This document shows, piece by piece, positions 1 through 25,364 of a DNA stretch of 45,198 nt; within the stretch, counting starts at the first letter, position 1; each line of letters begins with the position of its first letter. Both the position numbers and the translations under genes were made by a program. Below the pieces are notes generated by a model that had not been told where the DNA came from, made no database searches, and was given only the letters and a program-made list of their open reading frames with translations. Source of the DNA: Flavobacteriales bacterium (GTDB taxonomy: Bacteria > Bacteroidota > Bacteroidia > Flavobacteriales_D > Crocinitomicaceae); the NCBI GenBank assembly GCA_022361195.1, contig JAKSBJ010000129.1, forward strand, positions 1-45,198. Reading direction: 5' to 3'.

Positions 1-218
1 CTGTAATGAGTACGTTTTACCCAATGATGTCCTGCATCGTCTCTGGCATGCTCTGTGTCCCCTTCTTTATATCGATAAACCCTTCCTTCTGCTCCTTCTG
101 GATCTTTAATCAACTGAAAAACCTGATCATCAGATTTTTTTCTTTGAACTACAGCATGAGCCGCAGCCATTTGAGTCACTTCCTCATTATCCTGATATCT
201 GTACTGCGCTGCAACCAT
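1..218 (-). CDS. Hypothetical protein, 5' partial in window (N-terminus MVAAQYRYQDNEEVTQMAAAH...). Its ATG overlaps the TGA of the upstream GH25 gene (ATGA), so the eCIS operon continues past the window start.
   Basis: I translated the minus strand by hand from 218 downward. The frame stays open to position 3 with no stop. The start codon at 218-216 shares bases with the stop codon 220-218 of the preceding gene. This ORF is absent from the supplied ORF track because it has no stop in the window. Confidence 0.4.
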   Translation of the reverse strand, partial: MVAAQYRYQDNEEVTQMAAAHAVVQRKKSDDQVFQLIKDPEGAEGRVYRYKEGDTEHARDDAGHHWVKRTHY

Positions 219-1009
219 CAGCTCTTTTTACTTTTTGAAATGAACTTTTTCAACTCGCTCTCATTCCCGTTAAAAACATCCAAGTCGTTCTTCGTATTCC
301 CTAACATATAATGATCACTCATTTGCCAGAAGGTCCAGGTCGTCCAGCCTCCAAAGAGTTCAGGGGTACTATCTGAATAGTCTGCCACCCAAAGCGGATA
401 ATCAGCAAAGGCAGAATCAGTTAAATTGGTTTTACCAAAGGATGAATTGGTATAAATAATGGGAACATAATTGGTTAGTTTTTCTACTTCTTGTATAAAT
501 ACCAAAAGACTATCCATATCCGCCGCAGTACAAGCCGACCCTTTTGATTGGTTTTCAATATCAACGATTGGAGGCAATACTTTATCTCCAAAAGTTTTTA
601 CCTGATTGACGTAAAACTGAGCCTGAGCTATTGGAGAATCCTCACAACGATAAAAATGATAATAGCCTGAATAGTACTTGGATGAATCTAAAAAGACCTT
701 ATTAGAATCAAATTCAGGATCGACGTAGGTTATTCCTTCAGTTGCTTTGCAGATGATGAAACTAAGTGAGTCACTCAATTGGTTCGTTTTTCTGATTTCA
801 TCTCCCTGCCAATGTGAGACATCAATTCCGTAAGCATAAGCCCCGGGATCGCTTGCTACTGTTCCACTTCCCGAACAGTTGGTACAACACCCCAACACAC
901 CACATACTGCTGTTACTGCTTTTTTTTCATAGGCGAGAATGACAGTAGAAAAATGAGCTCCTAATAAAACAAATGGTATAGCTATCAAAATGAGACACTT
1001 GAGTTTCAT
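218..1009 (-). CDS. GH25-family lysozyme (N-acetylmuramidase) with an N-terminal signal peptide and a Cys-rich segment. Last complete gene of the eCIS operon.
   Basis: GH25 motifs are visible in the translation: GIDVSHWQG, IICKATEG, GYYHF and PPIVDIENQ (the DxE catalytic region). The hydrophobic N-terminus MKLKCLILIAIPFVLLGA fits a signal peptide. A 4-nt overlap with the upstream ORF indicates co-transcription. Confidence 0.8.
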   Translation of the reverse strand: MKLKCLILIAIPFVLLGAHFSTVILAYEKKAVTAVCGVLGCCTNCSGSGTVASDPGAYAYGIDVSHWQGDEIRKTNQLSDSLSFIICKATEGITYVDPEFDSNKVFLDSSKYYSGYYHFYRCEDSPIAQAQFYVNQVKTFGDKVLPPIVDIENQSKGSACTAADMDSLLVFIQEVEKLTNYVPIIYTNSSFGKTNLTDSAFADYPLWVADYSDSTPELFGGWTTWTFWQMSDHYMLGNTKNDLDVFNGNESELKKFISKSKKS

Positions 1010-1575
1010 ACTTCAACTTTTAACCATTCAATTAATATCTCCCAACTCTCAATATCTAACTCTACAGGTCCAATCCAATCTTTGTTCTCATAATGAGGCG
1101 CTGAACAGAAGTTGTTGTTCTCTGTTAGATCTTTGATTCGCTCTATTTCTGCTGAGTAATATCTTTTTTCAAATGGAATTCCGCTCAAAGCTTTGATTAA
1201 ATCCTGATTAATAAGGGGAAGTCGCTCAAATGTTGCTCCCAATTCTTCATTCCAACTAAAATCAATTTCTTCATCGTCTTTTCCCAAAAGCATTCTTCTT
1301 AATCGAAGTTGATTGTGAATTTCAATTTTCAGATATTCATCCAATAAGTGCATTAAATCCTGCACCTCTCCTTTATTCCTTAAAATCAGAAAAAGATTTT
1401 TATTGGTCATCAAATAGCCTACAACCCTCATTCCATTTGAATGAATACAGTAGTTTAAGCCTTTTGCCAGCATTAGTTTACATTGCGAATCAAGGAAATA
1501 GTCCTTCCAATCCGTCAACCTCAAGGTTAGAGGTTGAAGATTATCAGGAATTTTATTTGATTCAAAAACTTCCAT
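1006..1575 (-). CDS. Hypothetical soluble protein, 189 aa, with no transmembrane segment and no recognisable motif. It sits between the eCIS ATPase and the lysozyme.
   Basis: This is an ORF-track ORF in the same strand and operon context, with an ATGA overlap onto the GH25 gene. It has no hydrophobic stretch, so it is not a holin. Confidence 0.45.
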   Translation of the reverse strand: MEVFESNKIPDNLQPLTLRLTDWKDYFLDSQCKLMLAKGLNYCIHSNGMRVVGYLMTNKNLFLILRNKGEVQDLMHLLDEYLKIEIHNQLRLRRMLLGKDDEEIDFSWNEELGATFERLPLINQDLIKALSGIPFEKRYYSAEIERIKDLTENNNFCSAPHYENKDWIGPVELDIESWEILIEWLKVEV

Positions 1576-1582
1576 TTAAAAA

Positions 1583-2944
1583 CTAATAATCAGCCTTTTG
1601 AATTGTTTTATTTTCTTTGTTGTACTCACGTTTAATGCCTTCTAAAATATCATCTGATGTCACCTGGCTATTATCTCGCTGAACAGCTTTTAAAGCACAG
1701 AAACGTAGCACATTAATGATTGATCCTCCAGATAGCTCAAAGTCTTCTGCAATACGGTATAAATCCAAGCCTTCTTCCAAGGTACATCCAGCAGAAAAGG
1801 CATTTTGCCAAAGTAGAAGCCGCTCTTCGACAGAAGGAATCGGGAAATTGATCATTGCTTGAAAACGTCGGGTAAAAGCCTCGTCCATATTAGCTTTAAG
1901 GTTAGAAGCCAAAATGATTACTCCTGGATAATCCTCTATCCTTTGTAGTAAGAAGGACGTTTGTTGATTAGCATGGCGATCGTTGGAATTATTAGCAGCA
2001 GTACGTTTTCCAAACAAGGCATCCGCCTCATCAAAAAACAGTATCCAGTCTTTGTACTGCGCAATGTCAAAAATACGAGCCAAATTCTTCTCTGTTTCTC
2101 CAATATATTTAGAGACAATCATTGATAAGTCAACCCGATACACTTCTCTTCCAGAAGCCTTCCCCAATAGCGTTGCAGTTAAGGTTTTACCCGTTCCGGG
2201 AGGGCCATAAAACAAGGCCCTGTAGCCTGGTTTTATCATTTTATCCAACCCCCAATCATTCATGATTAGAGAAGAATGATCCAGCCAAACCGAAATCTCT
2301 TCCAACTGATTCATTACCACATCTGAAAGCACTACATCTTCCCACTCCATTTTAGTTGTAATCAGTTGAGCAGGAAAATTGGCACTGTGTTGAATTTTAG
2401 GTTGTTCTCCAGTAATAAAATACTGCATCCATGAATCACTAATACTTAAAATTCCATTTAAAGATGGAATGTGATCATCTGTATCACCCAACAAGAGAAT
2501 TCGTTCTTTTATTAAAATGCTATTTCGTCCTAGCACCCTATTTACTTCCAGTCTGAATTCAACATCAATAGTAGCAATGAGAAAGCAATAAGTTTGCCCA
2601 GTAGGTAAAAAACCACTGAAGTTTTTATCTACTACTCCACCAAATTCGGTAAAACCACGATCGTAAAGTTGATTTCGACCAAAGAAGATATCCAATACCT
2701 CGGGTTTTAAATGAGGCGAAATGGCCAAAATAAGTGCCAGACGATCAAAAACATTTAATTCGTGTTCTTGTACAAAATTGGCATAAGGACAATCTATTTC
2801 ACTTAAATCCGGAACCGGAATATCCATCCAGTGTTTTTCGTGCCCTTCTTGTAATAAATAGGAACGAATTACCTGATCAATAACTGCTTGTAACCAATCA
2901 ATCTCAGTATATAAAGTTGATATGGCTACATTTTTATCTTCCAT
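1583..2944 (-). CDS. eCIS-type AAA+ ATPase (Afp15/Pvc15-like, single AAA domain).
   Basis: Walker A is LFYGPPGTGKTL and Walker B is ILFFDEADALF. Downstream of these sit a sensor-1 region and an arginine finger region (SNLKANMDEAFTRRF). A roughly 230-aa N-terminal non-AAA domain is present, as in Afp15-family ATPases. Its position after the tape measure and accessory genes also fits. Confidence 0.85.
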   Translation of the reverse strand: MEDKNVAISTLYTEIDWLQAVIDQVIRSYLLQEGHEKHWMDIPVPDLSEIDCPYANFVQEHELNVFDRLALILAISPHLKPEVLDIFFGRNQLYDRGFTEFGGVVDKNFSGFLPTGQTYCFLIATIDVEFRLEVNRVLGRNSILIKERILLLGDTDDHIPSLNGILSISDSWMQYFITGEQPKIQHSANFPAQLITTKMEWEDVVLSDVVMNQLEEISVWLDHSSLIMNDWGLDKMIKPGYRALFYGPPGTGKTLTATLLGKASGREVYRVDLSMIVSKYIGETEKNLARIFDIAQYKDWILFFDEADALFGKRTAANNSNDRHANQQTSFLLQRIEDYPGVIILASNLKANMDEAFTRRFQAMINFPIPSVEERLLLWQNAFSAGCTLEEGLDLYRIAEDFELSGGSIINVLRFCALKAVQRDNSQVTSDDILEGIKREYNKENKTIQKADY

Positions 2945-3854
2945 TTGAATTAAAGAGTCGGCTTATATCGTCCAGATCAAAATCGGCCCATTTGAAATAC
3001 AATAAAGCTGTATTTGGATTGAGTTCATTGGCTTGTAACATATCGAGCAGACTCCCCTGAACATTGTTGGATACCTGTGGAGAATAATTCACCATGTCAT
3101 ACTCAAAATTGTAATCGTAAAATTCACTGGCCCATTCGTACACACCCTTTCGACGATTGATTAAATCACTGATAAAGTGGTCAAGTTTATCGTTTTTTAC
3201 TTTGAGCTTTTTAGCCTTAAAAAAGTGCGGTTTTCTTTTCACCTCGCGGTGGTAATATTCTATTTCTTTGGATTGAACTGTTCGTGAGGTTTCATGTCCA
3301 AAGAGATCCACCAACCCGTGATTTTCGGTATTAGTGGCAATTTCAAGCTCTCCTTCTTCCGATCCGCAAATGGCTAATGTCCAATTTGAAGTAACCGCTG
3401 TTTCAGTTACCACATAAACATCCCTGAAGGAGAAGTTAGTTTGAGTTAATTTGATGATTAGCTCATCAGCAATAATGTTCCAATTATTGATTCTGACTGA
3501 TTCAGGATTTGTTCCTTTAAAAAAGAAGCTTCCATATCCATCAAAAGCCAATACCTGTCGACTATATTCAAATTGTCCATCAATTAAATTCTCTCCTACT
3601 CCCCTTCCTGAATAAGGTTTGGTAACTCCTTGATGAAAAGACCAATTAGCTGCATGAAGAAGGTTTGCTGAACTAATATCGCAATTCTCCGGACTCACCA
3701 ACTTATTCATGTAGATGTTTCCCAAAAGGGTTATTTCTCCATTGTTGATTTGAAAAAAATCACCCGGGTGAACATAATGCCCCAAAGGAATTGTTGGAAC
3801 GAATCCTGTGCGATTATAGCAGGATTGATAATAATTTTGAAATACTTTTTCCAT
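2934..3854 (-). CDS. Hypothetical protein, 306 aa (eCIS accessory, cargo or fibre candidate). No HExxH motif and no known motif recognised.
   Basis: ORF-track ORF whose start overlaps the ATPase gene by 11 nt. A strong hairpin lies immediately upstream. Confidence 0.45.
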   Translation of the reverse strand: MEKVFQNYYQSCYNRTGFVPTIPLGHYVHPGDFFQINNGEITLLGNIYMNKLVSPENCDISSANLLHAANWSFHQGVTKPYSGRGVGENLIDGQFEYSRQVLAFDGYGSFFFKGTNPESVRINNWNIIADELIIKLTQTNFSFRDVYVVTETAVTSNWTLAICGSEEGELEIATNTENHGLVDLFGHETSRTVQSKEIEYYHREVKRKPHFFKAKKLKVKNDKLDHFISDLINRRKGVYEWASEFYDYNFEYDMVNYSPQVSNNVQGSLLDMLQANELNPNTALLYFKWADFDLDDISRLFNSNGR

Positions 3855-4768: not shown

Positions 4769-7333
4769 TCAAGATTCCGGACTTATAACCGTTTGGTATT
4801 TGAATTTGGCTGTACTATCGATATCAGAAAGTTTATTGGTGAACTGAGCCAAATCTTCCTCATTTGCTGTCGAATACGTCAATACTACAGGAATGTAATA
4901 AGCGTCTTCTACTAACAAATTTCCAAAGTTGTCAGTCGTGTTCGACTCAATAGTTACTTGCCAGGTTTTATCGGCACCTCGGGCTTCTGCATCAATTATG
5001 TCTGCCACGGTATAATTTGCTGTCGAAACCTGCTCCGCAATATCCAAATCAAAGAAGAATGACAGTGTTCCTAGCTGTTTTCCAAACTCTTTATCAATTA
5101 ATACTGCAGAACCGCTTAAGCCACTTAACCCCTCTTCAAAAGAATTTAACGCATTTTCTGCTTCCTGACTTAACACTTTTTCTTCGGCCTTTAAATCCTT
5201 CAAATCTTTCTTAGATTGCTTTAAAGAGTCCTTCAGTTCACTAAGAACTGCTTCTAACTTGGTTTTTTCGCTGTCAGTAAGGTTAGGATTTTTCAACGCC
5301 TCCTCAATGGTACTTACTTCGTTATTAAAACCACTTATTTCATTCTGCTTTTGTTTAATCTCGGTTTGTTTAGCCGCTACTTCTCCCTGTTTATTAAAAA
5401 CCCCTTTCTTATTTGTGACTTGAGCTTGTAGATCTGTTTTAAATGCATTGAGAGCATCAGTCTGAATTTTGTACACTAAGTACTTATCAATTGTAGCAAG
5501 GGAATCTGTTTCAAATTGTCCCAGATCATCCTGAGAGACAATTTTAAGCTCATCTACCATTTGCTCAAAAGTATCAAAGTTGGAAGTGATTTTCATTTGT
5601 TTGATACGAGCAATGTCCTTATTCATGGAAGCTTCAGTCTCTTTGAGTTTCGCTGAAAGTTCCTGGTATTTATTCTTCAGCTCATTGGCTTTTGCAGTAT
5701 CTCCATCGGCCAAACATTTATGGATTTCAGCTTTTACTTCTACCATCTCAGCCTGAATACTTAAGATCGTTGACGAATAAGCCTCAAAGACTTTTTGAAC
5801 CATTTCATCAGCCTTTTCAATAGAGTTGAGTTCTTTTTCGGTTAAAAGATTAGCCGTGATGTCTGAATTGGCAGGAATAAACATACAACGATATTCTACA
5901 TCCTGACCTTTATTAACGCTTTCGTTTAGTTTAAACTGCATAGTTTGACGCAAGAACTTCTTGTTCAGGTCTTCCTCTCTCTCCTTACGAATCTCAAACT
6001 TCTTAGTACCGTTACTAACGTCAATTTCAATGACATCAAACTCTGTTACCATTGATAAATCTTCCTCTTCGCTTTCAACTGTTATATTTGAGGCTATTGG
6101 TCCTCCCAACTCACTTGTCAAAGTAAAAATTGGTGAGGAAGCAGAAAGGAAATTCTCGAAATTGTTGATTTCTGACTTATAACTCTCAAGGTACTTGGCA
6201 AAGACAAAAACAACATAGCTTTTACCAAACTCTATCCTCTCATTATCAGTATCTCTCAAGGTTGTGTACTCTGATACATCAGCATCAATTTCATAAGAAT
6301 CTTTGCCATCATTAGGAACAGAAATTAACCGTTTGGTTGTGGCCACAGTAGAAGGATCCGTATCTACATTGAAAATATTTTCGGCAGTAGCAATGTTGAA
6401 TATTCCTGATTTATTGCTCTTAACGATGAAAACGGCATATTCCTGTACTGGATATGTATAGTCTATCTTCTCAATACCCAGACTTGTTTTTGTCACTTTA
6501 GGGAAAGGACTTAGAAGCGCATCAAAAGAGATTTGGAACTTCAATTCTCCCTCTACAGTATTTACTGGAAATGTAACATTTGCAGTCGTCAGACTCATAT
6601 TGAGTTCACTGTTCATCAATGTATAGGCCGAATTGGCTGCATAATAATCCGTATTCGCATCTTCCAGATTCCCTTCGGCTACTTTTTCTTTTGCACTCGC
6701 CACTGCCAATGCCTCATTATCAGCGGTAACCTGCTCGTTAGCAGCATCATATTCTGATGTGGCAATTTTTAAAAGATCCTGAATAGAAGTATTGGCTACT
6801 GTTGCCTGCGCTTCTACATTTGCAGAAGAAACTTCTGACATCAAGGCAGAGGACTCCATGGCATACTGCGAAGTTACCTCTGCATGAGAGGCAGTAATGT
6901 CCATATAGTGCTTTGTTGTTTTACAAAGATCATAGATATCCGTTCCATAGTCCGCAGCATTGATAATACTCGAAATGCTTCCCATATCGCTTGCCAGCTT
7001 TACAACAGCATTTGTTGCGATTTGAACATTCGCCGCTGAAACAGCAGCATTGGATACAGACAAATCAGAAAATTGTTTTTGCTGCTTAGCAGAAGTCAAA
7101 ACATTAATTGAATTGTTACTGTTTGTAACTGCTCCCTTTTTTACGGCAGCTTTTTTATCGGAATCTTGCTCGGCCTCATCCAATTTTTCGGCATCCGTAA
7201 TTGTTGCCTCCTGGGCATAATAGAGAGTAAACTTGGACGCATTCATAGATGCCTCCATTTTCTTTTGCTCCAGCTCTTGCTCGTTGAGTGAATCAACGAC
7301 ACTTGAACGCAGATTATCGTTATAGGTATTCAT
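4769..7333 (-). CDS. Hypothetical 854-aa protein. It has an N-terminal Ala/Ser-rich helical region, a central beta-rich domain, a long coiled coil (roughly residues 500-780) and a C-terminal globular domain. Tail-fibre-like, cage or cargo candidate of the eCIS.
   Basis: The domain layout was read from the translation. It sits immediately downstream of the tape-measure candidate in the same operon, preceded by a 66-nt AT-rich gap. Confidence 0.45.
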   Translation of the reverse strand: MNTYNDNLRSSVVDSLNEQELEQKKMEASMNASKFTLYYAQEATITDAEKLDEAEQDSDKKAAVKKGAVTNSNNSINVLTSAKQQKQFSDLSVSNAAVSAANVQIATNAVVKLASDMGSISSIINAADYGTDIYDLCKTTKHYMDITASHAEVTSQYAMESSALMSEVSSANVEAQATVANTSIQDLLKIATSEYDAANEQVTADNEALAVASAKEKVAEGNLEDANTDYYAANSAYTLMNSELNMSLTTANVTFPVNTVEGELKFQISFDALLSPFPKVTKTSLGIEKIDYTYPVQEYAVFIVKSNKSGIFNIATAENIFNVDTDPSTVATTKRLISVPNDGKDSYEIDADVSEYTTLRDTDNERIEFGKSYVVFVFAKYLESYKSEINNFENFLSASSPIFTLTSELGGPIASNITVESEEEDLSMVTEFDVIEIDVSNGTKKFEIRKEREEDLNKKFLRQTMQFKLNESVNKGQDVEYRCMFIPANSDITANLLTEKELNSIEKADEMVQKVFEAYSSTILSIQAEMVEVKAEIHKCLADGDTAKANELKNKYQELSAKLKETEASMNKDIARIKQMKITSNFDTFEQMVDELKIVSQDDLGQFETDSLATIDKYLVYKIQTDALNAFKTDLQAQVTNKKGVFNKQGEVAAKQTEIKQKQNEISGFNNEVSTIEEALKNPNLTDSEKTKLEAVLSELKDSLKQSKKDLKDLKAEEKVLSQEAENALNSFEEGLSGLSGSAVLIDKEFGKQLGTLSFFFDLDIAEQVSTANYTVADIIDAEARGADKTWQVTIESNTTDNFGNLLVEDAYYIPVVLTYSTANEEDLAQFTNKLSDIDSTAKFKYQTVISPES

Positions 7334-10300: not shown

Positions 10301-11548
10301 GTTATTTAAAACTGAAATCCAGAAGTTTTTTTCATCAAAACGTTCCAAACTATCTACCAACTGCTGTCTTAAGCTTTCAAAATGGACAATATATTCTGAG
10401 GAAGATCCTTTTAACCAAGTCTTCACAAGAGTTTTAGCCACATCTGCATTCAGGTGAACAGACAGTCTTTTTAATGCTTTAGAATCCAGATCAGCCTCAA
10501 TAATTTGCTTAAAGCGCCTTTCATCCTTTTGAACTAAAGCAGGTAAAAGCTCATTTAAATGCATTTGCCTTTGCCGAACCTTTTTATCATCCCCTTTAAG
10601 GTATTGTGTAAAACTCTTCCAATGAATTTCTGAAACGCTTTGATGGCCTGCTTTTTTAACAGGAATGGCATCATTTTCAGCTATCGCTCTGATAACATCC
10701 ATAAAGTCCGACCTTAAGGACATTTTCTGAGAGATTTCATCAATGGCCTTACGAATCATGTCTAAGAGTTCATAAAAATCCAAACCATAATGAGCTGCCA
10801 TTTGAGAAATGATACTTCGGGTAAAAGAAATTCGGTTAAATAAGGTTCCTCTTTCGGTTAGTAAGAAGTTCAAAACCCACCACCACACTTTTTTTCGGAA
10901 TTCGGAGGCCCCCGTTTGCACTACAGTTTTTCCCGACTGAATTTTCACCAACTCATCAGAGAATCCTATGATGCTTTCGTGATTATTTGGTTCTAAGCCC
11001 TGAACAATTTTTCGGATCGTAGCATCCTTGATTTGCCAGGCCATTCTCTTTCTAACCTTTTCAGAACGTCCTAAACTTCTGATGAGCCTAATAAACTGCT
11101 GCTTCTCACTTAAGAGTAAATGGTTGATGATTTGATCTACTGTTCCAAACTCAGAGCGATATGACCAGGGGAAATAACCTTTTGCAAAGTATTTTCCAAT
11201 TACCTCCAATTGAGATTCCTGCTTACGTATAATCTGTATATTCTTTTCCCGTTGATAAGAGTCCAGCGTGAGACGTAATAGCTCATTCATGAGTTCAACT
11301 CCCAATTTTTGGGTTAACTCACGTTCGAGATTTTGATAATCCACCTCTCCTAAATCAATTTCAAGCCTGTCTATTCGCCAAATTTGATCTTCGGGGCAAA
11401 CTTTATCAAAGACTCGATTTAATTCCCTACCCAAAGGTTCTTTACTCCATGAACTGATTCTATTTTGCAATTCTGTTGCAAAGGCACGATCATCCAAACT
11501 GGTTTCCCAGCCAAACTTTGAAATGATATGTCCAGAATCTTTAGCCAT
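7400..11548 (-). CDS. Putative eCIS tape-measure / tail-length-determination protein (Afp14-like), 1382 aa, predominantly alpha-helical.
   Basis: Its size and helical, low-complexity-free composition fit a tape measure. Its position immediately after the two large baseplate genes and before the ATPase matches Afp/PVC synteny. I recognised no catalytic motif. The call rests on synteny and composition only. Confidence 0.4.
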   Translation of the reverse strand: MAKDSGHIISKFGWETSLDDRAFATELQNRISSWSKEPLGRELNRVFDKVCPEDQIWRIDRLEIDLGEVDYQNLERELTQKLGVELMNELLRLTLDSYQREKNIQIIRKQESQLEVIGKYFAKGYFPWSYRSEFGTVDQIINHLLLSEKQQFIRLIRSLGRSEKVRKRMAWQIKDATIRKIVQGLEPNNHESIIGFSDELVKIQSGKTVVQTGASEFRKKVWWWVLNFLLTERGTLFNRISFTRSIISQMAAHYGLDFYELLDMIRKAIDEISQKMSLRSDFMDVIRAIAENDAIPVKKAGHQSVSEIHWKSFTQYLKGDDKKVRQRQMHLNELLPALVQKDERRFKQIIEADLDSKALKRLSVHLNADVAKTLVKTWLKGSSSEYIVHFESLRQQLVDSLERFDEKNFWISVLNNMLLRPNDLTSKNWIQLWAQEFEEKSKLKKGTVVQTLINNPQTSMKSSWKVNTKALYFDQLASEMGHSQLSEKLFRKILEQLIQQSGTVDITAQQSNSLEHLRKILQADAELSLTYLLNYQDKEGLRKILPQIIPDNVFHTLVKKWNDAHPLLKWFTDQLFAVADQLELPFSNQFLLNISAEIGREYIVRNEKLKFKEIQQIFLSYASKLTEEKRIYFLELAKAYFQRIGNKITLSQSQIEAFVIEFQIQQELSFETKVKFWKEQGTNTKIEFILLLKKLYYDKEFIQIRLAESPVLESLLEYLFPQLSLSKIEKLKVFWKQFTIKNSSIRNTQLIFEDVLWNILLTVGPQVTMSKLEDLFFESIINSHQINSSSQFISTTEVSPKLLKKLRKKLSEVEGTVFDYKTFRKLFKTGEKEIFFNKAVYSRIDLLKLILNEKPEVFAILFEKELSKTEQLSIVHEIGIHEILFAFQGTSNYGLWMKAAHELYFFAKELLYKDASFEQKFEDAIQQVLAKGGDVNKFLSELIEITLEELMLNSALNSEEVLTVIASQRDHFSKGLIKALKQNETVKSLFDDVIFNETEELKKNIDLLSDNEVREVWYYLIQYGQTPSWLKFNSKTSLKNWVDKLLERSVSNFLIEIRRSKNEAVKKVHFKSLISFERFVTSISKVNPTQATLMGRIQELYLAFNQISSNRLLLVSIKDLIYQKLFLSWKNNDWNFFRGDTFWKEIFWELKQLQGWSRDELLVEFAELSFALPAAYRMELERYPLPKKLIAVQEDMIEEEITEELWEEEEPEIEATGIYVKNAGLVLINNYLSMLFERCGLLVDGEFVDKQAQYKAVYYLQFVATSVIDVDEGFLALNKLLCGIHPSTPIEALEEMPEDDRDVINGMLTAMGSHWSQIGETSTMGFRGNWLVREGLLVESIDRWELNVEKRAYDVLLNQSPFSFSIIKYPWMKKPLHVNWSY

Positions 11549-14225
11549 TATTTTCTTCGAGGTTTTCTAAATAGAGTTTGATCATTTGAAGCACCAACTT
11601 CCCTGTTGACTTCACCAAATCTTCATCATAGTTTTTATTGGGTCCCTGAAAGCGAAGATTGTTGTGCCAATCAGCAAAATGAGGGATCAGTTTCTCCAAA
11701 CGATGTGTCGTAGCCCTGTAAAAACTACAATTGATTCGTGGTGAAATAGTATCCGCTACAAAGTCTTCAAGAACAGTCTTGAAGGAGTCTTTTGAAAAGC
11801 GAAACACATAATCTGGGAAAATAAAATGCAGTTTATTCTTAAAAATGGGATGATTGGTTGAAACCTCAGCATCACCTCCCCAAGAAGCTTTAATTCCAAG
11901 TTTAACACCACTATCTCCTAAATCTTCAAAATAGGAGGATTCCCAATTTACCCGAGTCTTTTTAGCATGACTACCATCAGCTGTTGTTAAAGTCTTAGCA
12001 TCGTTCAACTTTTCCAGTAAAGAATCTGCCATTTTCTCCAGCTCGTAACAAATCTCAAGGGCTGTTTCGTAGTCATGTATTTCTCCTATCTGCCATACTT
12101 GATCCTCATCATTTTTTTCTATAATAACAATCTGAAAATCGGCTGACTGTAATAGAAGATCACTTTCAATAAAAATGGACCCTTTACGTTCTATCATCAT
12201 CCAATAAGTCTGACTTACCTCATCTTTTAAGGAATCTTCATAATAGTTATCAATAATAAAATTGCGATAGGTTGACCTTAAACCAAAAAGCAGATTCAAT
12301 TTCAACTCAACTGATGAGTAATCGTCAAAATCCTGTTCTGAAAGCTTTTCTGTTTCATCGATAAGTTGCGAGCGAAGAATGAATTCATTTTGTTGTTCTT
12401 CATACAACTCAATCCACATTTTTTCAGTTACCAGAGGCAGTGTTTCCTCAATTTTTCGGCATCCCATAAAATTGTATGCCTTAAACCGATAATAAGAAAG
12501 TAGTCCAATATTTTGGACGTACAGACTCTTAAAGATGACCTTATCCTCCAGTTTATTTGCTGAGAAAGATGAAGTTGAAATAATCTCATCAATTAAATAC
12601 GGAGACTCTCCATGGCGAGCAATTAAATGATCTAAAATTTCATTTCGTCTTTCCAAACCTTCCTGAGATTCTTCAATCGCGCCTCCAACTCCTTTAATGT
12701 AGGTATTGTAAGGATCATTTTTATAAGCTTTCCAACTATCTATTTCCAATTGCTGTGAAGTTGTGGTTTGTAGAGAAAAATCAAACGCTCCCGAATTTTT
12801 TAGTATTGGCCTGATATTCGGAACTTCATAAAGCGATTGATAGAAATAAGAAGGAGAAAAACTTAAAAACGGAGCTGGATATTGTGGATTAGCCAATTCA
12901 TATTGGTCCATTTGTGCAAAAAGGGCTTGTTGATCAAAGGGAGCAGGACAAATTGAATTCTTAAAAGAAAACAACTCATGAACACTGGCCAATTGAGAAA
13001 ACTCGTTCGCCAATACCTGATCAAACAAGGTTAAGTATCCTTTTAGTTGGCGAGAACGGGCAATTTGATAATCAGCCACTCCAGATTCAATAGCGTTTTC
13101 TCCTACTCCAAATATCTCAGGAAAAGTATTTTGGATAGAATAATATTCCTGAATTTCACGATAGGTGCCATCTGGTAATTTAGGGTCAGTATTAACAACA
13201 GACTTGTTTGGGTTATTTGCAACCTCTTTAGTACTAATTCGAGAAAGAACGTTAGTCAGATACGCATTAGTCAACTGCTCCCCCTTCCACATCACTTTTA
13301 TATCTCCCGACTGAATAGAAGAAATAAGATTTACCACAATTAGCTGCTCATCGTTAGAGCTAAGAGCATTCAACTGCTTTGAGTCCTGCGTAAATGCTAT
13401 TTCTTCAACAAAACTGATTCCTTTAATCTCTTGAAGAATCCCAATAATTTCGGAAGTATTAAGATCATTTCGCTTGCTTCCCAAACTTTCGGTTAAGATC
13501 CATCCATTTTGTAATTTAGGTCCATCAAAAATAGAATCTGGAGTAGCTCCTTTACTAATCAAATCATCATAGCTGTACTGGGTAACTCTTGGAAAGAGGT
13601 ATTGATTAATTGCATCCTGAGCTCCTTTAAACAGATCATCCAGTGAATGTTCTGATTCAACTACAAATGTTCCACTAAGACCATAATTCAGCTTTTGAAA
13701 TGGCTTTGGTTTGAGAAACAACTCACCCAAATTTCGACATCGTGAAAATTGATAATATGCCGCTTCGCATATTTGGTCTATTTGCATTTCATCTGAAATC
13801 GTTTCTGAGATAAGCAAATAAGTATGATACAATCCACTTTCGAGATGTACACCTTGGGCCTTAGGAATAATCACAGCATTTTCAACTACCTCTATTCCAT
13901 CAATAATGTATTTTCTAAAATCATTGATAGTTAAAGGAGTTGTTGTCAAAATTTCTTCAGCTGTGTAAAACTGATTTTTAACAATAAGTTGATCATTCTT
14001 ATCAGTAAGAATGTCTTTCATTGGAAAATCGATACAGTACCCTAACTCGGTCAAGGCAAAACACAGCTGATCCAAAATGGTAATTCCTGGATCACTAGGA
14101 TTAAAATTAGTCCAGGAGTTTCCACTGAATTCCTGTAAAAAGGCCAAGCCCTCCTCTTTCAGAAGCTCAAAATTCTGCGTAACCGGCAAAGTCTCATCTA
14201 CTATGTGATACTGTTCTTCGATCAT
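11541..14225 (-). CDS. Large baseplate wedge protein, Afp12/gp7-like (894 aa).
   Basis: It follows the gp6/J-like gene with an 8-nt overlap and has the size expected from conserved gp25-gp6-gp7 synteny. No short diagnostic motif is known to me. Confidence 0.45.
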   Translation of the reverse strand: MIEEQYHIVDETLPVTQNFELLKEEGLAFLQEFSGNSWTNFNPSDPGITILDQLCFALTELGYCIDFPMKDILTDKNDQLIVKNQFYTAEEILTTTPLTINDFRKYIIDGIEVVENAVIIPKAQGVHLESGLYHTYLLISETISDEMQIDQICEAAYYQFSRCRNLGELFLKPKPFQKLNYGLSGTFVVESEHSLDDLFKGAQDAINQYLFPRVTQYSYDDLISKGATPDSIFDGPKLQNGWILTESLGSKRNDLNTSEIIGILQEIKGISFVEEIAFTQDSKQLNALSSNDEQLIVVNLISSIQSGDIKVMWKGEQLTNAYLTNVLSRISTKEVANNPNKSVVNTDPKLPDGTYREIQEYYSIQNTFPEIFGVGENAIESGVADYQIARSRQLKGYLTLFDQVLANEFSQLASVHELFSFKNSICPAPFDQQALFAQMDQYELANPQYPAPFLSFSPSYFYQSLYEVPNIRPILKNSGAFDFSLQTTTSQQLEIDSWKAYKNDPYNTYIKGVGGAIEESQEGLERRNEILDHLIARHGESPYLIDEIISTSSFSANKLEDKVIFKSLYVQNIGLLSYYRFKAYNFMGCRKIEETLPLVTEKMWIELYEEQQNEFILRSQLIDETEKLSEQDFDDYSSVELKLNLLFGLRSTYRNFIIDNYYEDSLKDEVSQTYWMMIERKGSIFIESDLLLQSADFQIVIIEKNDEDQVWQIGEIHDYETALEICYELEKMADSLLEKLNDAKTLTTADGSHAKKTRVNWESSYFEDLGDSGVKLGIKASWGGDAEVSTNHPIFKNKLHFIFPDYVFRFSKDSFKTVLEDFVADTISPRINCSFYRATTHRLEKLIPHFADWHNNLRFQGPNKNYDEDLVKSTGKLVLQMIKLYLENLEENNG

Positions 14226-17200
14226 GCGGCTCTAAAGGTGAAATGATGTTTTATACCCGGAACAAACAACTGGTTTGCTTGCTGGGGAACAATTAATGGA
14301 GTTTGTTGAGCAGCTGGATTTTCATCTGCTTCTAGTATATGGTCAGAAGTAATGAATGAAAGTTCCTGAACTTCCAAAACCCCCTCTATTGATTTTATAA
14401 GTGGTCTAAGCTGCGATTCGCTTATCCCCTGGTCAATTTGTACATGACTTTGACCATCTTGTATCCATGGAGCTAAAAATGTGTTTAATCGTTGATTCAG
14501 TTCCTGCTCCAATCCTCTAATAGCGAAACCTTTTTTAACAACAATTGTTGCTTTAACAGTGACATAAACAGGATTAAAGTTTGCTATATCAAGTTTTGTG
14601 AAAGGCGAAACTTTACTCTGTAAGTAGTCCGTCACTCTCAATTCCAAGCATTCATTTACCAGCGGTAAAAAGGCAGATGGTGAGGCTTCATCCTCTACTT
14701 GCTTGACTAACAATACTTCGGTTTTCCCCTGACTTTTATCATAAATTACTTTGACATAATAAACATCCGGGAAATTCTCTTTAATCAATCTAAAATAATC
14801 TGCCGAACGACCAATTCTACCTTTTGTCGCTAAATGATTACTAACACGCTTGAACATTGCGGTTTCATTCTCAGCTCCTTTCCCGCCAAATGAAGGAAAC
14901 GGTTGAGCCAAAGAAGCTATTTTGGGCATTGGCACAGCAGGAGATGTGATTTTAGATGCAGCCAGCTTAGGAGCAGTTGTATCTGCTAAATAGGCTGTTG
15001 AGCTTCGTTGAAGTTCAATTCCATTTGAATCTAAATAAACTGTCTCAGGAATAGCCCCAAGATCTTCGTTCACCCCTATCGCTAACCAATACTTTTTGGG
15101 AGGCATAAAAACCGTATCAGAAGAAGGGTCTAACGGAATGTCCAGACTTAAAATACCGCTGCAAATAAAATGCTGTGTTCCGTCATTCAATAAAGAACAA
15201 TCTTGCCACCCTTGATCCGTTAATGCACTGTAAGTTATTGGTGATTTAGTATTTGGAATTCCTATTTTTCTGCTGAGTTCATAAAACAGGTTGAGTTCAC
15301 TATTCCCTTCTAAATTCTGTAAATTGATGAGTTGAACTCCCTCCTGCTGAAAAGGAACATAAAGGGGTAAATAGGATGATTCAGTATTTTCTTCCTCCGT
15401 TGATTTTTTCTCCTCTAAAGGAGCTCCCAAAGCAAAATTGGAAATGAAAACAGAGTTATCAACTGAATTATCAAAGGATTTATAGGTTGAAAAAGGCGTA
15501 TAATGAAAACACTCTAAAGGATATTGATCTTCTGTTGATCTAGCCTGCTCAAAAGTATACAACTGACTGGAGCTGTAAGAGAGATTCATTTTTTTCACCT
15601 TTGGTGTGTAAGGGACATTCGCAGATTGCTTTAGCTTCTTACACCAAAGTTTTCGCATTAATGTTTTTGCATTTTGTAATGCGAGATAGGACACCACTTT
15701 TCCATATAGCTCCAAGCCAAACCCAAACCCTGGATTAACCAATGTCATCTTCATAAAACCATCTTTGGTTTTATCTGAAAAGGTTAAAGGTTTACTTTGA
15801 AGACCTGTTAAGGGCTCAAATCCTTTGGGCATTTCATCACAATTGAAATTGGTAGAAGGCGATAAAGCCCCCAATAAACTCTCCTTAAAGAGGTATAAAC
15901 CTTTTTTATGTTTTTCCCATTCTTTTTTCTCTGATTTTCGCTTTTTGCGAGCATGTTTATCAGATAATGTGCATTGATCCACTTCATCCACCTCCAAATC
16001 AGTCCAAATTCCATTTTGGAGATAATCAAAGTTGACTCTGAAACTTTTGTTGGAATACTGAAAAGCTGCAATATTCCAACCTAACAAATTACTTAACAGC
16101 CAATTGATGGTGCGTTTAAACCAAGTCGGTTTTTTTGATCCGGTACTATCAAGGACATCATAATGTTTCAAGTACTTATTGTACTGTTCGTAATATTTTT
16201 TGAAATCTTCAGGAAGTCCATCCCAATCCAGCTCTATGCAAATTTGCCCTTCAGGTTTACTAAAGATTTCTGAGCTTCCAACAAAAAAGCTGGAATTAAC
16301 CGCAGGTGTTGGACCCAATAACTCGAAAGGTTTTTTAGCACTTAATTTTCCATTATCATTCTCAAGTGCCATTGATTTCATTCCACTCACTTCTACATCT
16401 ACCTCCAAACTTTCAATTTCGGGAGGATTGTTTAAATCCTTAAATTGAGAAAAGTGAATTTTAAATAGCGGCCAGGAAGCCTGATAGCCATCCGGATTCT
16501 TTTTAAAAGCCTGTATAGCTGGATCACCTGTATCTAAAGAAACCTCAATAAGTAACTGTCGAACCTTTTTATCCTGATCTTTTTCTACATCAACGTTCGG
16601 AAATGTCAATTTACCCTTAAGATCAAACCAGCTTTTTTCAGTACTCAAAAAATAATCGGCATTGAATAAATCCACCAGATCAGTTTCTTCCTTAAAGGTG
16701 AAGGTTAGTTTTAAAGTCCTTGTTCCGTCTTGTAAAAAGAACATTGGTGAAGCAAAGGCTACTGCCATATCTTGCCGAACTGCAGTAGTTTTATCTCCTC
16801 CAAAACCTGGCCAGGAAATGAGTTTTCCCTTTTCATTTTTTTTGAGTTTGTTTGGCGTAATTTCTTCAGAAAGATATAGTTCTGAAAGTCCGGAATCACT
16901 ATTAATCTGAAACAAAGTAGAAAGCGTCCCAATTTTAGCAGGACTTAAAATAGTCTCCTTTAAAGTTTCAAATAAAATGGGTTGCTTACTAGCATTTAAC
17001 CCTCCTTTAAACTCTGTTCCTTGTGCCAGAACTAGGAAATCTGTTTTAGGAGCTAGTTTGGCTGTAACAAAAACCTTATCAGGCTGAGCATTCTTTTGAT
17101 TTTGTTTAAGAATATCTCTGTAGTAAAAATTAAGATGTTTTTTACTGAGACCATTCATTGCCTCGGTATAAAGTGACAATAATCTTGTAAAAACCCGAAC

Positions 17201-18010
17201 TAAAATGGTATCAGGAAACTTATTCTTCTCCGTTTTTAAGTTTTCAAACTCCTGGGTAGCCTGATCAATATTATGTTTATAAAATCCAAAGAGATCATTT
17301 CCAGTGGATAGCAGTCTGGAGAATATGGTCAGGGTTGAATTATCTTGTAAAGGGTATTCCAAATTGATAATTTCCCAAGGAGAACCTTCATCAACATCAT
17401 CATTGTTTTGCCCCCATAATTCAGGTACATAGGTTCCTCCTTTTTTCCACAAGTCAGGATCAAAATCCTCAAAAAGATTTAACTGTACTGCCTTAATTCC
17501 TTGAATTATGCCCGTAATGTTTAAGGCTGTTCTTAAACTCAAAAGTTCGGTAAGTAATTGAGCATATTTACTTTTTACTTCTTGAAACAAGTAGTTTTCT
17601 AGCGGATAATCATGATTATGTTTTTTCATGTAATGTGTCCACTGCTCTATTTCAAGGTATATTTCGGTATAGAGATCAAATAACTGATTGACCAGCTTTC
17701 CTAATTGTTCTTCGGAAATATTACCGGAATTTACGTCTTCACTTTGCGATACAATTTGAAGGAAAAGGTTTCGCTTAACAGTATATCGGCTTTTGGCAAT
17801 ATAAGCGAGAAGTATAATAGGGTCTTTGAGTAAGAGTGGCTGCCAACTACTGTATATTTTGTTTTCCTGATCATAAAAGTTCAAAACATCCGAAAAATCT
17901 GCCATGAACTGAAGAAAATCCTGATCTAACCTTCCATCTATAACGGCCGTTGTAGGATTCAATGCTTGTTCCAGCGATTTAAGGGCTTTATTTTGATCGA
18001 TTTGAATCAT
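14222..18010 (-). CDS. Baseplate J / gp6-like protein, Afp11-like (1262 aa).
   Basis: It lies directly downstream of the gp25-like gene with a 5-nt gap. The gp25 then gp6-like order is conserved across contractile tails, eCIS and T6SS (TssE-TssF). Confidence 0.5.
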   Translation of the reverse strand: MIQIDQNKALKSLEQALNPTTAVIDGRLDQDFLQFMADFSDVLNFYDQENKIYSSWQPLLLKDPIILLAYIAKSRYTVKRNLFLQIVSQSEDVNSGNISEEQLGKLVNQLFDLYTEIYLEIEQWTHYMKKHNHDYPLENYLFQEVKSKYAQLLTELLSLRTALNITGIIQGIKAVQLNLFEDFDPDLWKKGGTYVPELWGQNNDDVDEGSPWEIINLEYPLQDNSTLTIFSRLLSTGNDLFGFYKHNIDQATQEFENLKTEKNKFPDTILVRVFTRLLSLYTEAMNGLSKKHLNFYYRDILKQNQKNAQPDKVFVTAKLAPKTDFLVLAQGTEFKGGLNASKQPILFETLKETILSPAKIGTLSTLFQINSDSGLSELYLSEEITPNKLKKNEKGKLISWPGFGGDKTTAVRQDMAVAFASPMFFLQDGTRTLKLTFTFKEETDLVDLFNADYFLSTEKSWFDLKGKLTFPNVDVEKDQDKKVRQLLIEVSLDTGDPAIQAFKKNPDGYQASWPLFKIHFSQFKDLNNPPEIESLEVDVEVSGMKSMALENDNGKLSAKKPFELLGPTPAVNSSFFVGSSEIFSKPEGQICIELDWDGLPEDFKKYYEQYNKYLKHYDVLDSTGSKKPTWFKRTINWLLSNLLGWNIAAFQYSNKSFRVNFDYLQNGIWTDLEVDEVDQCTLSDKHARKKRKSEKKEWEKHKKGLYLFKESLLGALSPSTNFNCDEMPKGFEPLTGLQSKPLTFSDKTKDGFMKMTLVNPGFGFGLELYGKVVSYLALQNAKTLMRKLWCKKLKQSANVPYTPKVKKMNLSYSSSQLYTFEQARSTEDQYPLECFHYTPFSTYKSFDNSVDNSVFISNFALGAPLEEKKSTEEENTESSYLPLYVPFQQEGVQLINLQNLEGNSELNLFYELSRKIGIPNTKSPITYSALTDQGWQDCSLLNDGTQHFICSGILSLDIPLDPSSDTVFMPPKKYWLAIGVNEDLGAIPETVYLDSNGIELQRSSTAYLADTTAPKLAASKITSPAVPMPKIASLAQPFPSFGGKGAENETAMFKRVSNHLATKGRIGRSADYFRLIKENFPDVYYVKVIYDKSQGKTEVLLVKQVEDEASPSAFLPLVNECLELRVTDYLQSKVSPFTKLDIANFNPVYVTVKATIVVKKGFAIRGLEQELNQRLNTFLAPWIQDGQSHVQIDQGISESQLRPLIKSIEGVLEVQELSFITSDHILEADENPAAQQTPLIVPQQANQLFVPGIKHHFTFRAA

Positions 18011-18015
18011 GTAAT

Positions 18016-18444
18016 TTATCCAAGATTTGTTCCTTCTTTTAAATGAAAAGGGAATACATAATTGTGGCGGGTGTTGGTCTGATTATAAACATAAACCACC
18101 GTAATTTCTACTAATCCCAATTGTAGATCAGGATAGTCTACATCCACTTCCTGAACAGTAATTCGTGGTTCGTGATTTCGTAAACTGCTTTCAACAGCAT
18201 CTCTAATTTCACCTTTCAGTGTTTCATCCATTTTTCGGAAAAAGAACTCCTGTAACCCCGAACCAAAATCGGGTTCCATACAACGTTCACCTTTCTTTGT
18301 TTTCAGGATTACATCAATGGAATTATTAATGTTGTTCTCGTATTGAGTTACATCTAATTCAGCATTTCCCGCAGAAAAACTGATAGGAAAGGCCCAACCC
18401 GATCCTAAAAAATGATTATCCTGTTTTGACAATTGTTTATCCAC
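18016..18444 (-). CDS. gp25-like baseplate wedge protein (GPW_gp25 / TssE-like, Afp9-like), 142 aa.
   Basis: Matching motifs are LGSGWAFPISF, PDFGSGLQEFFF and EPRITVQEVDVD. Size is about 140 aa. Confidence 0.8.
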   Translation of the reverse strand: MDKQLSKQDNHFLGSGWAFPISFSAGNAELDVTQYENNINNSIDVILKTKKGERCMEPDFGSGLQEFFFRKMDETLKGEIRDAVESSLRNHEPRITVQEVDVDYPDLQLGLVEITVVYVYNQTNTRHNYVFPFHLKEGTNLG

Positions 18445-18736
18445 CTATTTCAACATTAAATGCACCTAAAACTATTTCTCCTCCGTGGGCAGTAGTATCA
18501 CCCACCCTAGCTGCCGGCATTCCACCAATCATAACTGTAGCCGATCCTTTCACAATGGCATCTGGTGGTCCAACACAAATCAACTCATCGCCTACTCTGG
18601 CGGCTGGTAATCCGCCAATTAAAACAGTAGGTTCACCGGGACCAACAACGGGTCCTCCAACATGTGGAATTGGAACCGGAGCTGGAGTTTCCATCGGACA
18701 TTCATGAAAATCTGTTAATCGTGCTGCTGGAGGCAT
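18437..18736 (-). CDS. PAAR-repeat spike-tip protein, 99 aa, with no toxin extension.
   Basis: Three PAAR-like motifs are present: PPAARLTD, LPAARVGD and MPAARVGD. Confidence 0.85.
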   Translation of the reverse strand: MPPAARLTDFHECPMETPAPVPIPHVGGPVVGPGEPTVLIGGLPAARVGDELICVGPPDAIVKGSATVMIGGMPAARVGDTTAHGGEIVLGAFNVEIGG

Positions 18737-23973: not shown

Positions 23974-24792
23974 TTATACATAGACATACATTGGAGAAGC
24001 CAAATCACCATTGTTAGAGGCATTCTTTATCTCCAAGTTCATGGGGTCAGGATTTGGTAATGCCTGAAAAATTGTTTTCTGAATTTTTCGAGAAGCAGTC
24101 AATCTGCCTGTCCCACTTTGATTATTGACCAATTTAAACTTGTATTTGGGACGATAACTCAAAGGAATGAGGGTTAAGCCCGAACTGAATAATAAAGCTG
24201 TTTGTTTGTTGGGTAATATTACCTCTTCTGGTCCTTCAAATAAAACCTCTTCTGAACCAGTAATTTCTGGCTCAGAAAGGTCTAAAGAACTCTGATTAAT
24301 AATGTAATAGTTCCATTGCGTTTTACGAGCAGTAAAGGAAAGATCAAATATCTCCGTGCTTAAAATGTCTTTAAAATAAAGACGAATTATAGCCAACTTT
24401 GTATATTCTCCCTGTTCAAATCTCCCCTTCCCTAAATCAATTTGGCCTTCATCAACTTTAGTTCCTTCATTGCTATTAAAAACAAGACGCCCCAGTTCAT
24501 TTACCGGAACGTCAGTATATTGATAAAAGCTATTTTCTTCAGTTACTAACTCAAATACAAAGGCATTTTCACCAGTAATTTTTTCGACATATTGAAACCG
24601 ATCCTTTAGATCGCCCGAGTTTTGTGTATATAATCTAATGATATTATCTCTAAAGTATGTAACAGTGAATCCATATTTAGAAACCCATTGCTCAGTAGCT
24701 GCAGACAGCTTTAATTGAATGGGATAAGTCATCTCCAAATCAAAATAACTGTGGCTTATTTTCACCTCTGATATTTTTGTATAGCTAATCAT
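23974..24792 (-). CDS. Hypothetical protein, 272 aa, between the cap-like and sheath genes. eCIS-associated, function unknown.
   Basis: ORF-track ORF with a 4-nt overlap onto the upstream gene. No motif recognised. Confidence 0.45.
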   Translation of the reverse strand: MISYTKISEVKISHSYFDLEMTYPIQLKLSAATEQWVSKYGFTVTYFRDNIIRLYTQNSGDLKDRFQYVEKITGENAFVFELVTEENSFYQYTDVPVNELGRLVFNSNEGTKVDEGQIDLGKGRFEQGEYTKLAIIRLYFKDILSTEIFDLSFTARKTQWNYYIINQSSLDLSEPEITGSEEVLFEGPEEVILPNKQTALLFSSGLTLIPLSYRPKYKFKLVNNQSGTGRLTASRKIQKTIFQALPNPDPMNLEIKNASNNGDLASPMYVYV

Positions 24793-25364
24793 TGATTTGG
24801 TAAAACTGGATTGGATTGGTTGGTAACCGGAGCGACAAAACCTTGTGTATTTTCTGACTCAATAGTGATTAATCTCATCTTATAAATCACAGAAGGAACA
24901 TATTTCGCTCCCATTGCACTCCAAAGGTTATGCATCTCGAAATAACTGATTTTCTCTACTTCAAATTCAAGGCGATCAATTCCCTCGGGAAGATTTGAGT
25001 ACGAAGAAGAATTAACCACTGGATTTATCTGGAAAAACTGAATTCCCGAATTGAGAAACTTGAGTGTTTCTGTATAATCATCAAAACTTGAAGACACTAA
25101 TAGGTCTATATTATACCTTTCGGGCCGTCTTACATTTGAGAAGCTTCCATCCGACAAGCGTTGGTTACGTACATAAAACTGGCGATTAGTTTCCTGAGCA
25201 ATATTGATCATAGAAATGACCAACTTATTTTGATTTGGCTTGGGAACCGAACCATCGGCTTCAATAAGGTTATTGATCAACACTTTTGATTCGTTCAAAC
25301 CAAATTGATTACGTACAAACTGATCCAATGAATTGGCAGTAAACTGTAGCACTGTGTCGATCAT
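24789..25364 (-). CDS. DUF4255-like protein, candidate tube/sheath terminator cap (Afp16/Pvc16-like N-domain), 191 aa. First gene of the operon.
   Basis: It has the size and N-terminal pattern (MIDTVLQFTANSLDQFV...) of cap-family proteins that often open eCIS loci. The assignment is tentative. It is preceded by a 206-bp promoter region. Confidence 0.45.
   Translation of the reverse strand: MIDTVLQFTANSLDQFVRNQFGLNESKVLINNLIEADGSVPKPNQNKLVISMINIAQETNRQFYVRNQRLSDGSFSNVRRPERYNIDLLVSSSFDDYTETLKFLNSGIQFFQINPVVNSSSYSNLPEGIDRLEFEVEKISYFEMHNLWSAMGAKYVPSVIYKMRLITIESENTQGFVAPVTNQSNPVLPNQ

Follow-up and report, generated by a model that had tools for sequence, protein, structure and literature searches.

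According to reviews of the field, extracellular contractile injection systems (eCIS) come free when the producing cell lyses, and many eCIS loci are without a known lysis cassette. On pADAP, a holin/lysozyme/Rz-like cassette of the order Phage_lysis, Phage_holin_3_3 and Phage_lysozyme lies upstream of afp1. Beyond the classical tailocins, the exit of eCIS particles from the cell is largely assumed rather than shown. The loading of cargo has been described for AlgoCIS, where it needs a disordered N-terminal loading sequence together with the AAA+ ATPase Alg15, the cargo entering the tube unfolded and in the cytoplasm (bioRxiv 10.64898/2026.05.27.728243). Here we analyze an eCIS operon in a stretch of 45,198 nucleotides from a marine Flavobacteriales bacterium of the Crocinitomicaceae (assembly GCA_022361195.1, contig JAKSBJ010000129.1, positions 1 to 45,198; "the window" below), and in particular a gene for a GH25 muramidase in the late part of this operon. 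Our analysis suggests that the GH25 is a holin-less, Sec-exported autolysin that aids the release of particles assembled in the cytoplasm, a reading to which we would give a probability of roughly 0.55.

The GH25 gene lies at positions 218 to 1009 on the minus strand, with its stop codon at 218-220, and encodes a protein of 263 residues whose identical sequence is found in NCBI as MI810_07325, from a Flavobacteriales bacterium metagenome-assembled genome (MAG). The protein matches Pfam PF01183 (Glyco_hydro_25) over residues 62-235 with E=6.6e-37, scoring 128 bits where the cut-off is 27. Further matches are to PHROG endolysin families, with E-values down to 8e-39, and to solved GH25 muramidases in the PDB (Cellosyl, 1jfx, E=1.8e-24). 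The GH25 motifs are as clear as an earlier reading of this DNA from the letters alone, here called the sequence-only reading, had held: GIDVSHWQG at residue 61, KATEG at 88, YYHF at 116 and DIE at 150. Residues D63, D150 and E152 align on D9, D98 and E100 of Cellosyl, which we take to be catalytic, and this triad is invariant in 77 homologues as well as in all 11 of the eCIS-linked GH25s that were inspected. The catalytic domain (residues 59-263; positions 221 to 835, minus strand) is modeled by AlphaFold with a predicted local distance difference test score (pLDDT) of 82-98, and the gene has the same GC content, overall and at third codon positions (GC3), as the rest of the operon. Judging from its family and intact active site, the product is most likely an active N-acetylmuramidase.

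The enzyme is also predicted to leave the cytoplasm. An N-terminal signal peptide had been proposed, and the N-terminus indeed has the appearance of a hydrophobic export signal, of the Sec type: residues 1-18 (MKLKCLILIAIPFVLLGA; positions 956 to 1009, minus strand), followed by H19, form a putative Sec / signal peptidase I signal peptide, with an n-region that contains two Lys and an h-region of 13-14 residues. The c-region pattern L-x-G/S-A-H, which predicts cleavage after A18, is kept in five relatives, namely the GH25s that we label L005, L016, L015, L029 and P0007; the c-regions read IFVLLGAH in L005 (after correction of a miscalled start), LVAGAH in L016 and L014, ALVGAH in L015, ALLGAH in P0007 and LFSAH in L029. 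The anchor of signal-arrest-release (SAR) endolysins, a weakly hydrophobic, uncleaved N-terminal stretch of about 20 residues that is rich in Gly/Ala/Ser/Thr and kept among relatives, was looked for and not found: the h-regions of the relatives span 13-14 residues and then give way to polar sequence. This length is usual for cleaved Sec signals and would not suffice for a signal-anchor. The hydrophobic stretch reaches 23 residues in the window GH25 only, not in its relatives. Between signal and catalytic domain lies a variable linker (residues 19-58; positions 836 to 955, minus strand) with a second hydrophobic stretch, HFSTVILAY. The linker had been called Cys-rich, and four Cys are indeed present (C36, C41, C42 and C45), but they are poorly conserved, with homologues having 0-2 Cys there. 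AlphaFold confidence is low for residues 1-58 as a whole (pLDDT 47-66).

Export signals of one kind or another are general among the eCIS-linked GH25s. In 11 of 11 inspected, the N-terminus shows either the pattern of a signal peptidase I signal or one of the lipoboxes LAAGC, LVAC, LGSC, AFSC, SFSC and LLGC. Among more distant GH25s, lipoboxes are found both within other eCIS loci and at housekeeping loci. A C-terminal sorting domain of the type 9 secretion system (T9SS), which would take up ~70-100 residues, is absent from the window GH25: the catalytic domain aligns up to residue 253-258 of 263 and ends about 8 residues before the C-terminus, so that there is no room for such a domain. Of the three signal types that had been considered, Sec, lipoprotein and T9SS, we thus find a putative signal of the signal peptidase I type in this clade, the lipoprotein type in other clades, and T9SS never.

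The GH25 gene is probably co-transcribed and translationally coupled with the late eCIS operon. Upstream, its start overlaps the stop of a gene of 189 codons (p189; positions 1006 to 1575, minus strand) in an ATGA, and p189 itself follows the gene for a 453-residue AAA+ ATPase of the Afp15/Pvc15/Alg15 type (positions 1583 to 2944, minus strand; PF00004, E=1.4e-26), the position of which is kept in all related loci. Downstream lies a gene of 318 codons, cut at the window edge so that only its 5' end of 72 codons is inside (positions 1 to 218, minus strand), whose start codon, ATG, shares 1 nt with the GH25 stop. ATGA overlaps had been described on both sides; the one with p189 stands, while the downstream junction is TGATG. 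A 4-nt overlap of start and stop codons with the upstream gene is found in 5 of 10 GH25 loci.

The gene had further been placed at the 3' end of the operon, which is an artefact of the window edge, since position 1 of the window is the end of the contig. Two contigs from other metagenomes, L001 and L002, have 99.6-99.7% identity with the window where they overlap it and reach 8.8 kb past position 1. On them, five more same-strand genes follow the GH25 and span 8.3 kb before a convergent gene is met; they encode, in order, proteins of 318, 393 (eCIS_core/DUF4157), 547, 529 (eCIS_core) and 970 (eCIS_core) residues. AlgoCIS has DUF4157 proteins as its cargo, and such proteins are a hallmark of eCIS toxins. 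The 318-residue protein, which is soluble, cargo-like and 76% identical in L005, has an N-terminus that resembles the leader of a cargo-like protein of 379 residues in L016, in which the DNR motif described below is present, and its gene is a probable cargo or effector gene. The GH25 gene is therefore at the boundary between conserved machinery and cargo array, not the end of the operon.

The association of a GH25 with this kind of operon recurs. Related loci were found with p306, a conserved 306-residue protein of the operon, as anchor, since the alignments of p189 contain no stretch conserved enough for this purpose, and they were mapped with hidden Markov models. The result is a set of 48 loci in which each species is represented once. 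They belong to Kordia, Tenacibaculum, Pedobacter, Flavobacterium, Crocinitomix, Mucilaginibacter and a range of MAGs, and 35 of the 48 have enough downstream sequence to be evaluable. A GH25 gene directly follows p189 in eight of the 35 (L016, L017, L019, L020, L029, L037, L040 and L041), and in a ninth, L033, the first cargo genes come before it; this locus is from Tenacibaculum sp. MAR_2009_124, the one cultured isolate that was found to have a GH25 in the operon. With the window, L005, L064 and L065 added, there are 13 distinct GH25 loci, with the gene directly after p189 in 12. Synteny is held down to 47-53% GH25 identity. The GH25-bearing loci are distributed over at least five clades of a tree of p306 and the AAA+ ATPase, and the eCIS-linked GH25s appear in at least four places of a GH25 tree that includes non-eCIS copies. 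If we assume about 1-2 GH25 genes per genome of ~4,000 genes, the chance of a GH25 adjoining p189 in 8 of 28 loci comes out, by a rough binomial estimate, below 1e-10, even if the count is reduced to five independent events. Hence part of the earlier idea of a release module carries over: recurrence in 13 loci (9 of the 35 species loci), an intact enzyme, an export signal and coupling all speak for it. What falls away is the position at the 3' end, the partnership with p189 (see below) and the word "dedicated", which is too strong for an enzyme missing from 26 of 35 related loci.

How could a single muramidase serve in release? In our model the particles would be assembled and loaded in the cytoplasm and could exit only through failure of the envelope. 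The GH25, made together with the late part of the operon between the AAA+/p189 pair and the cargo genes, would be exported by Sec into the periplasm of the producer itself, where it would weaken the sacculus until the cell lyses and the particles are set free. Since no membrane anchor is encoded in the operon, degrading the producer's sacculus and so promoting lysis would be the simplest role for the enzyme. That no holin-like gene is visible had already been remarked for the window, and the extended contigs contain none either. In the window, L001 and L005, the N-terminus of the GH25 is the sole hydrophobic segment in any non-nested, full-length open reading frame (ORF) on the operon strand; a holin, an anchor or another transmembrane protein was not found there, the remaining same-strand hydrophobic ORFs being small and nested. 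Nor does a spanin-like pair of lipoprotein and transmembrane ORFs follow the GH25, where the next genes are soluble and cargo-like. One nested hydrophobic ORF of 60 codons, inside the AAA+ gene (positions 1936-2118), was considered as a hidden holin and rejected, as its segment is not conserved in L005. Timing in the absence of a holin might come from low, coupled translation and slow accumulation of the GH25 or, alternatively, from activation of the GH25 when toxic cargo or stress collapses the membrane potential. De-energization of the membrane is the trigger of SAR endolysins. As an analogy for timing, de-energization activates Sec-exported endolysins (PMC12403621) as well as those of the SAR kind.

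Several points weigh against the reading of the GH25 as a release autolysin. With no holin, spanin or timing device in sight, an exported muramidase could lyse the cell too early. The signal peptide was assigned from pattern and conservation rather than by a trained predictor, and its +1 residue is His; many Bacteroidota signal peptidase I substrates begin with Gln. The absence of any GH25 from 26 of the 35 related species loci means that the enzyme is not required for the basic function of the lineage, and the slot after p189 is the start of a variable region that is open to any accessory gene. Moreover, both trees mentioned above were built by neighbor-joining and have no support values, so that several gains cannot be separated from one gain followed by many losses. 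Finally, Flavobacteriia commonly have GH25 lipoproteins of about 45% identity in chromosomal surroundings of an ordinary kind, and L015, a close relative whose signal peptide is the same, has no eCIS visibly beside it; such homologues show that the family also has roles unrelated to eCIS. Together with the missing GH25s, they are the reason why each of the three alternatives that we now consider keeps some probability.

The alternative that survives best is that the GH25 is an ordinary periplasmic enzyme of wall turnover whose gene ended up in the operon's variable region without any eCIS-specific role. This is what one might expect from the homologous GH25 lipoproteins in housekeeping neighborhoods, from L015, where this subtype of signal peptide occurs with no eCIS in view, and from the patchy presence of the gene across the lineage. 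We nevertheless regard it as unlikely, given that p189-adjacent GH25s in 8 of 28 loci and at least five clades are, on our rough estimate, far beyond chance, and that start-stop overlaps, catalytic triad and synteny have all been retained.

A second alternative is that the GH25 is an antibacterial weapon, which might travel in the tube as cargo or, as a soluble bacteriolytic enzyme, get out alongside the particles upon lysis of the producer. Some eCIS loci have known peptidoglycan-hydrolase toxins (EAT10 and a pesticin domain in Pseudoalteromonas luteoviolacea), the GH25 gene heads the cargo region, and Flavobacteriia are often bacteriolytic. Against this stands the way in which cargo seems to be marked in this lineage. 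Genes of the cargo region share an N-terminal leader of the form hydrophobic-x-hydrophobic-x-D-N-R at about residues 24-38 (the DNR leader), often followed by a V/I-Q-R-K/R element and present with or without a DUF4157 domain; it was seen in L001 at 11074-18450, that is, in the extension past position 1 of the window, and in loci L009-L063. At this locus, four complete cargo genes have it, as IELKDNRES (393 residues), IQLKDNRES (529), IQLQDKRP (970) and QFEDNRPAS (547). It is present in 40 of the 80 other downstream ORFs in the related loci as well, and may be the cargo loading sequence of the lineage. None of 125 GH25 sequences has the DNR leader, and the window GH25 gives no match to the eCIS_core (DUF4157) domain. 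What the GH25s have in place of either is a predicted Sec or lipoprotein signal. Since it is in the cytoplasm that the AAA+ ATPase loads cargo, a protein sent through Sec would miss the tube, and the GH25 is therefore probably not cargo. An exported immunity protein was not found beside the GH25, p189 being without a signal peptide and the 318-residue protein being soluble and cargo-like, and the missing T9SS domain likewise speaks against secretion. The antibacterial-cargo function that the sequence-only reading had offered as its own alternative is thus weakened, and we consider the weapon explanation in either form quite improbable.

Some other proteins of the cargo region deserve mention in their own right. 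In L027 (14432-15481) and L012 (10562-11764), cargo-like proteins combine a DNR leader with glycine-zipper or hydrophobic segments; these are candidate membrane-disrupting toxins that could also de-energize the producer. Rv2525c-like proteins (PF08924, related to GH25) are found in L017 (5320-5985) and in L059 (13496-14251), the copy in L059, a locus without GH25, having a signal peptide. In L045 (10629-12071) and L050 (12854-14289), the p189 homologue is followed by a gene for a protein of 171 residues, whose match to CIS_TMP (E=2e-61) is confined to the C-terminal part of that family, and then by a gene for a membrane-anchored Peptidase_M90 protein.

The third alternative, equally improbable in our view, is that the GH25 locally opens the producer's peptidoglycan for a trans-envelope structure or tube in cell-anchored firing, as in the subtype iv type VI secretion systems (T6SS) of Aureispira and Amoebophilus: TagX and MltE open peptidoglycan for the classical T6SS, an exported membrane-proximal or lipoprotein hydrolase is how such a helper would be expected to look, and close relatives of this class of contractile injection system include both released particles (AlgoCIS as well as MACs, the contractile structures associated with metamorphosis) and an anchored one (the trans-envelope complex of Aureispira T6SSiv), two modes that sequence alone does not separate, but the operon encodes no transmembrane or anchor protein, its cap and its cargo architecture (DUF4157 and N-terminal leader) match those of the released AlgoCIS, and most related loci do without a GH25.

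We return to p189, for which a role as chaperone or immunity partner of the GH25 had been suggested. This does not hold up: the family is present in 28 of the 35 evaluable loci, 19 of which have no GH25, and without a signal peptide p189 cannot be a periplasmic immunity protein. Homologues of p189 occur in 9 of 9 GH25 loci and in 19 of 26 GH25-free loci (one-sided Fisher p ~0.1), and wherever the context is visible they stand directly after the AAA+ ATPase and ahead of the cargo genes, with or without a GH25. Thus p189 is a conserved, lineage-wide eCIS accessory gene that is separate from the GH25. Its product is probably cytoplasmic, and its place beside the cargo-loading ATPase suggests, as a guess, a role in cargo handling. 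Searches of Pfam, NCBIfam, PHROGs, PADLOC and PDB sequences gave no match for p189. A word-indexed homologue search with a p189 profile returned five proteins only, and an exhaustive phmmer search returned 139 representative homologues of ~180 residues. The family motifs include W23, ALNYC, GYLIT and FCSA.DY..GPV; in an alignment of 61 sequences, M1, W23, Y54, S158 and V171 are invariant. By its position after the ATPase, p189 could have been the tail cap (Afp16/Pvc16/Alg16A), a candidate that we rejected: p189 has no Pvc16_N match, and the cap is encoded by the first gene of the operon.

A structural comparison by Foldseek relates p189 to the IS200/IS605 TnpA and REP-associated Y1 transposases, with weak scores (E ~6e-3, template modeling score 0.4-0.5). 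The identity to Y1 transposases is 4-14%, and the context is an eCIS operon rather than an insertion sequence. The His-hydrophobic-His motif and conserved metal ligands are absent from p189, and no His is conserved among the 61 aligned sequences. If one nevertheless allows for a transposase fold, a more extended scenario can be drawn up, in which the lineage has repeatedly recruited a Sec-exported GH25, of the signal peptidase I or the lipoprotein type, into the same slot, from at least four GH25 branches, as a one-gene, holin-independent release factor timed by coupling to the loading genes or by de-energization through the cell's own toxic cargo, while p189 serves the AAA+ ATPase as a loading cofactor that reads the DNR leader. 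We offer this scenario as a tentative one and would not at present bet on it.

All large ORFs between position 25364 of the window and position 1 lie on the minus strand and belong to one eCIS operon. From the 5' end its genes encode the cap (24789-25364; Pvc16_N, E=5e-24; AlgoCIS cap 7adz, E=3e-13), a 272-residue protein, the sheath, two gp19-type tube proteins, a CIS_tube initiator, a VgrG-type spike, gp25, a Baseplate_J protein of 1262 residues, a protein of 894 residues, the tape-measure protein of 1382 residues (CIS_TMP, E=5e-95) and proteins of 854, 275 and 306 residues, which match no known family. The AAA+ ATPase, p189, the GH25 and the ORF cut at the window edge complete the series. 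The part from the cap through the 275-residue gene, in which the known families were assigned by Pfam matches, occupies positions 3917 to 25364. The 306-residue protein is p306 (positions 2934 to 3854, minus strand), whose gene overlaps the start of the AAA+ gene. Its identity is 35-65% over the best tblastn segment in the 48 species loci, and 52-64% against L005, L009 and L012; p306 is an uncharacterized core component of this eCIS lineage. Pfam and PDB sequence searches gave no match for p306 or for the proteins of 318 and 854 residues. The ORF of 854 codons (4769-7333, minus strand) appears in L001 (2979-5554) split into 191 and 644 codons, which is due to a run of N in the scaffold and not to biology.

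Some genes near the operon may take part in its regulation. Directly upstream of the cap, an ORF of 308 codons (25571-26497, minus strand) has a weak match to the GerE/LuxR helix-turn-helix (E=0.0075, below threshold) and may encode an operon regulator. About 4 kb upstream of the operon, two LytTR response regulators and a TPR-His_kinase sensor of the LytS type are encoded at 29333-30043 (plus strand), 30052-30801 (minus strand) and 30798-32678 (minus strand); these too may be eCIS regulators. In the divergent locus L005, a Response_reg-LytTR gene and a His_kinase gene come right after the eCIS. A scan for sigma-70 promoters and terminators, of a kind ill-suited to Bacteroidota promoters, found fewer sites than in shuffled controls.

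A self-exported muramidase encoded in the operons of a quarter of the species of one lineage provides a concrete candidate for eCIS release, and the GH25-bearing and GH25-free loci of this lineage form a natural contrast set. If the autolysin reading is true, the GH25 would be a compact release switch for engineered particles, with a bearing on the production bottleneck that "suicidal lysis" poses for eCIS applications. The DNR leader and the conserved gene of ~180 codons beside the loading ATPase bear in turn on the question of how cargo is loaded. We found no earlier description of a GH25 or other muramidase in eCIS operons in the searchable literature, and PF01183 is not listed in the text of the supplementary tables of Geller et al., as far as that text goes, several of the tables being available only in part.

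How, then, does this locus compare with known systems? As in the lysis cassettes of tailocins and Afp, a peptidoglycan hydrolase is encoded with a particle that can be released only by lysis of the producer. In those systems the cassette is separate and the enzyme is of the GH24 or pyocin lysin type, whereas here the enzyme is a GH25 with its own predicted Sec signal, lies between the AAA+/p189 pair and the cargo genes, and belongs to a Bacteroidota host; R-type pyocins have holin, lysin and spanins, and here there is neither holin nor spanin. The likeness to Sec-exported endolysins (Lys44 of the oenophage fOg44) and to SAR endolysins (Lyz of P1 and R of phage 21) is that the enzyme would reach the wall by way of the host Sec system; the signal peptide of the fOg44 lysin is noted in PMC12403621. 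The phages in question still encode a holin or pinholin for timing, of which we find none. In Type 10 secretion, exemplified by the Yersinia entomophaga lysis cassette and its Tc toxin, a wall hydrolase likewise frees a large cytoplasmic complex from a sacrificed subpopulation, but does so with holin, endopeptidase and spanins, whose genes often lie apart from those of the cargo, and not with a single GH25 inside the operon. EAT10 and the P. luteoviolacea pesticin-domain protein resemble the GH25 in being peptidoglycan hydrolases encoded in an eCIS effector region. These have been read as injected or target-directed toxins, and when EAT10 was tested, an artificial twin-arginine translocation (Tat) leader was needed to bring it into the periplasm, whereas the GH25 comes with a native predicted Sec signal and without a cargo leader. 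More generally, the arrangement described here extends the known association of lysis enzymes with phage-tail-like particles.

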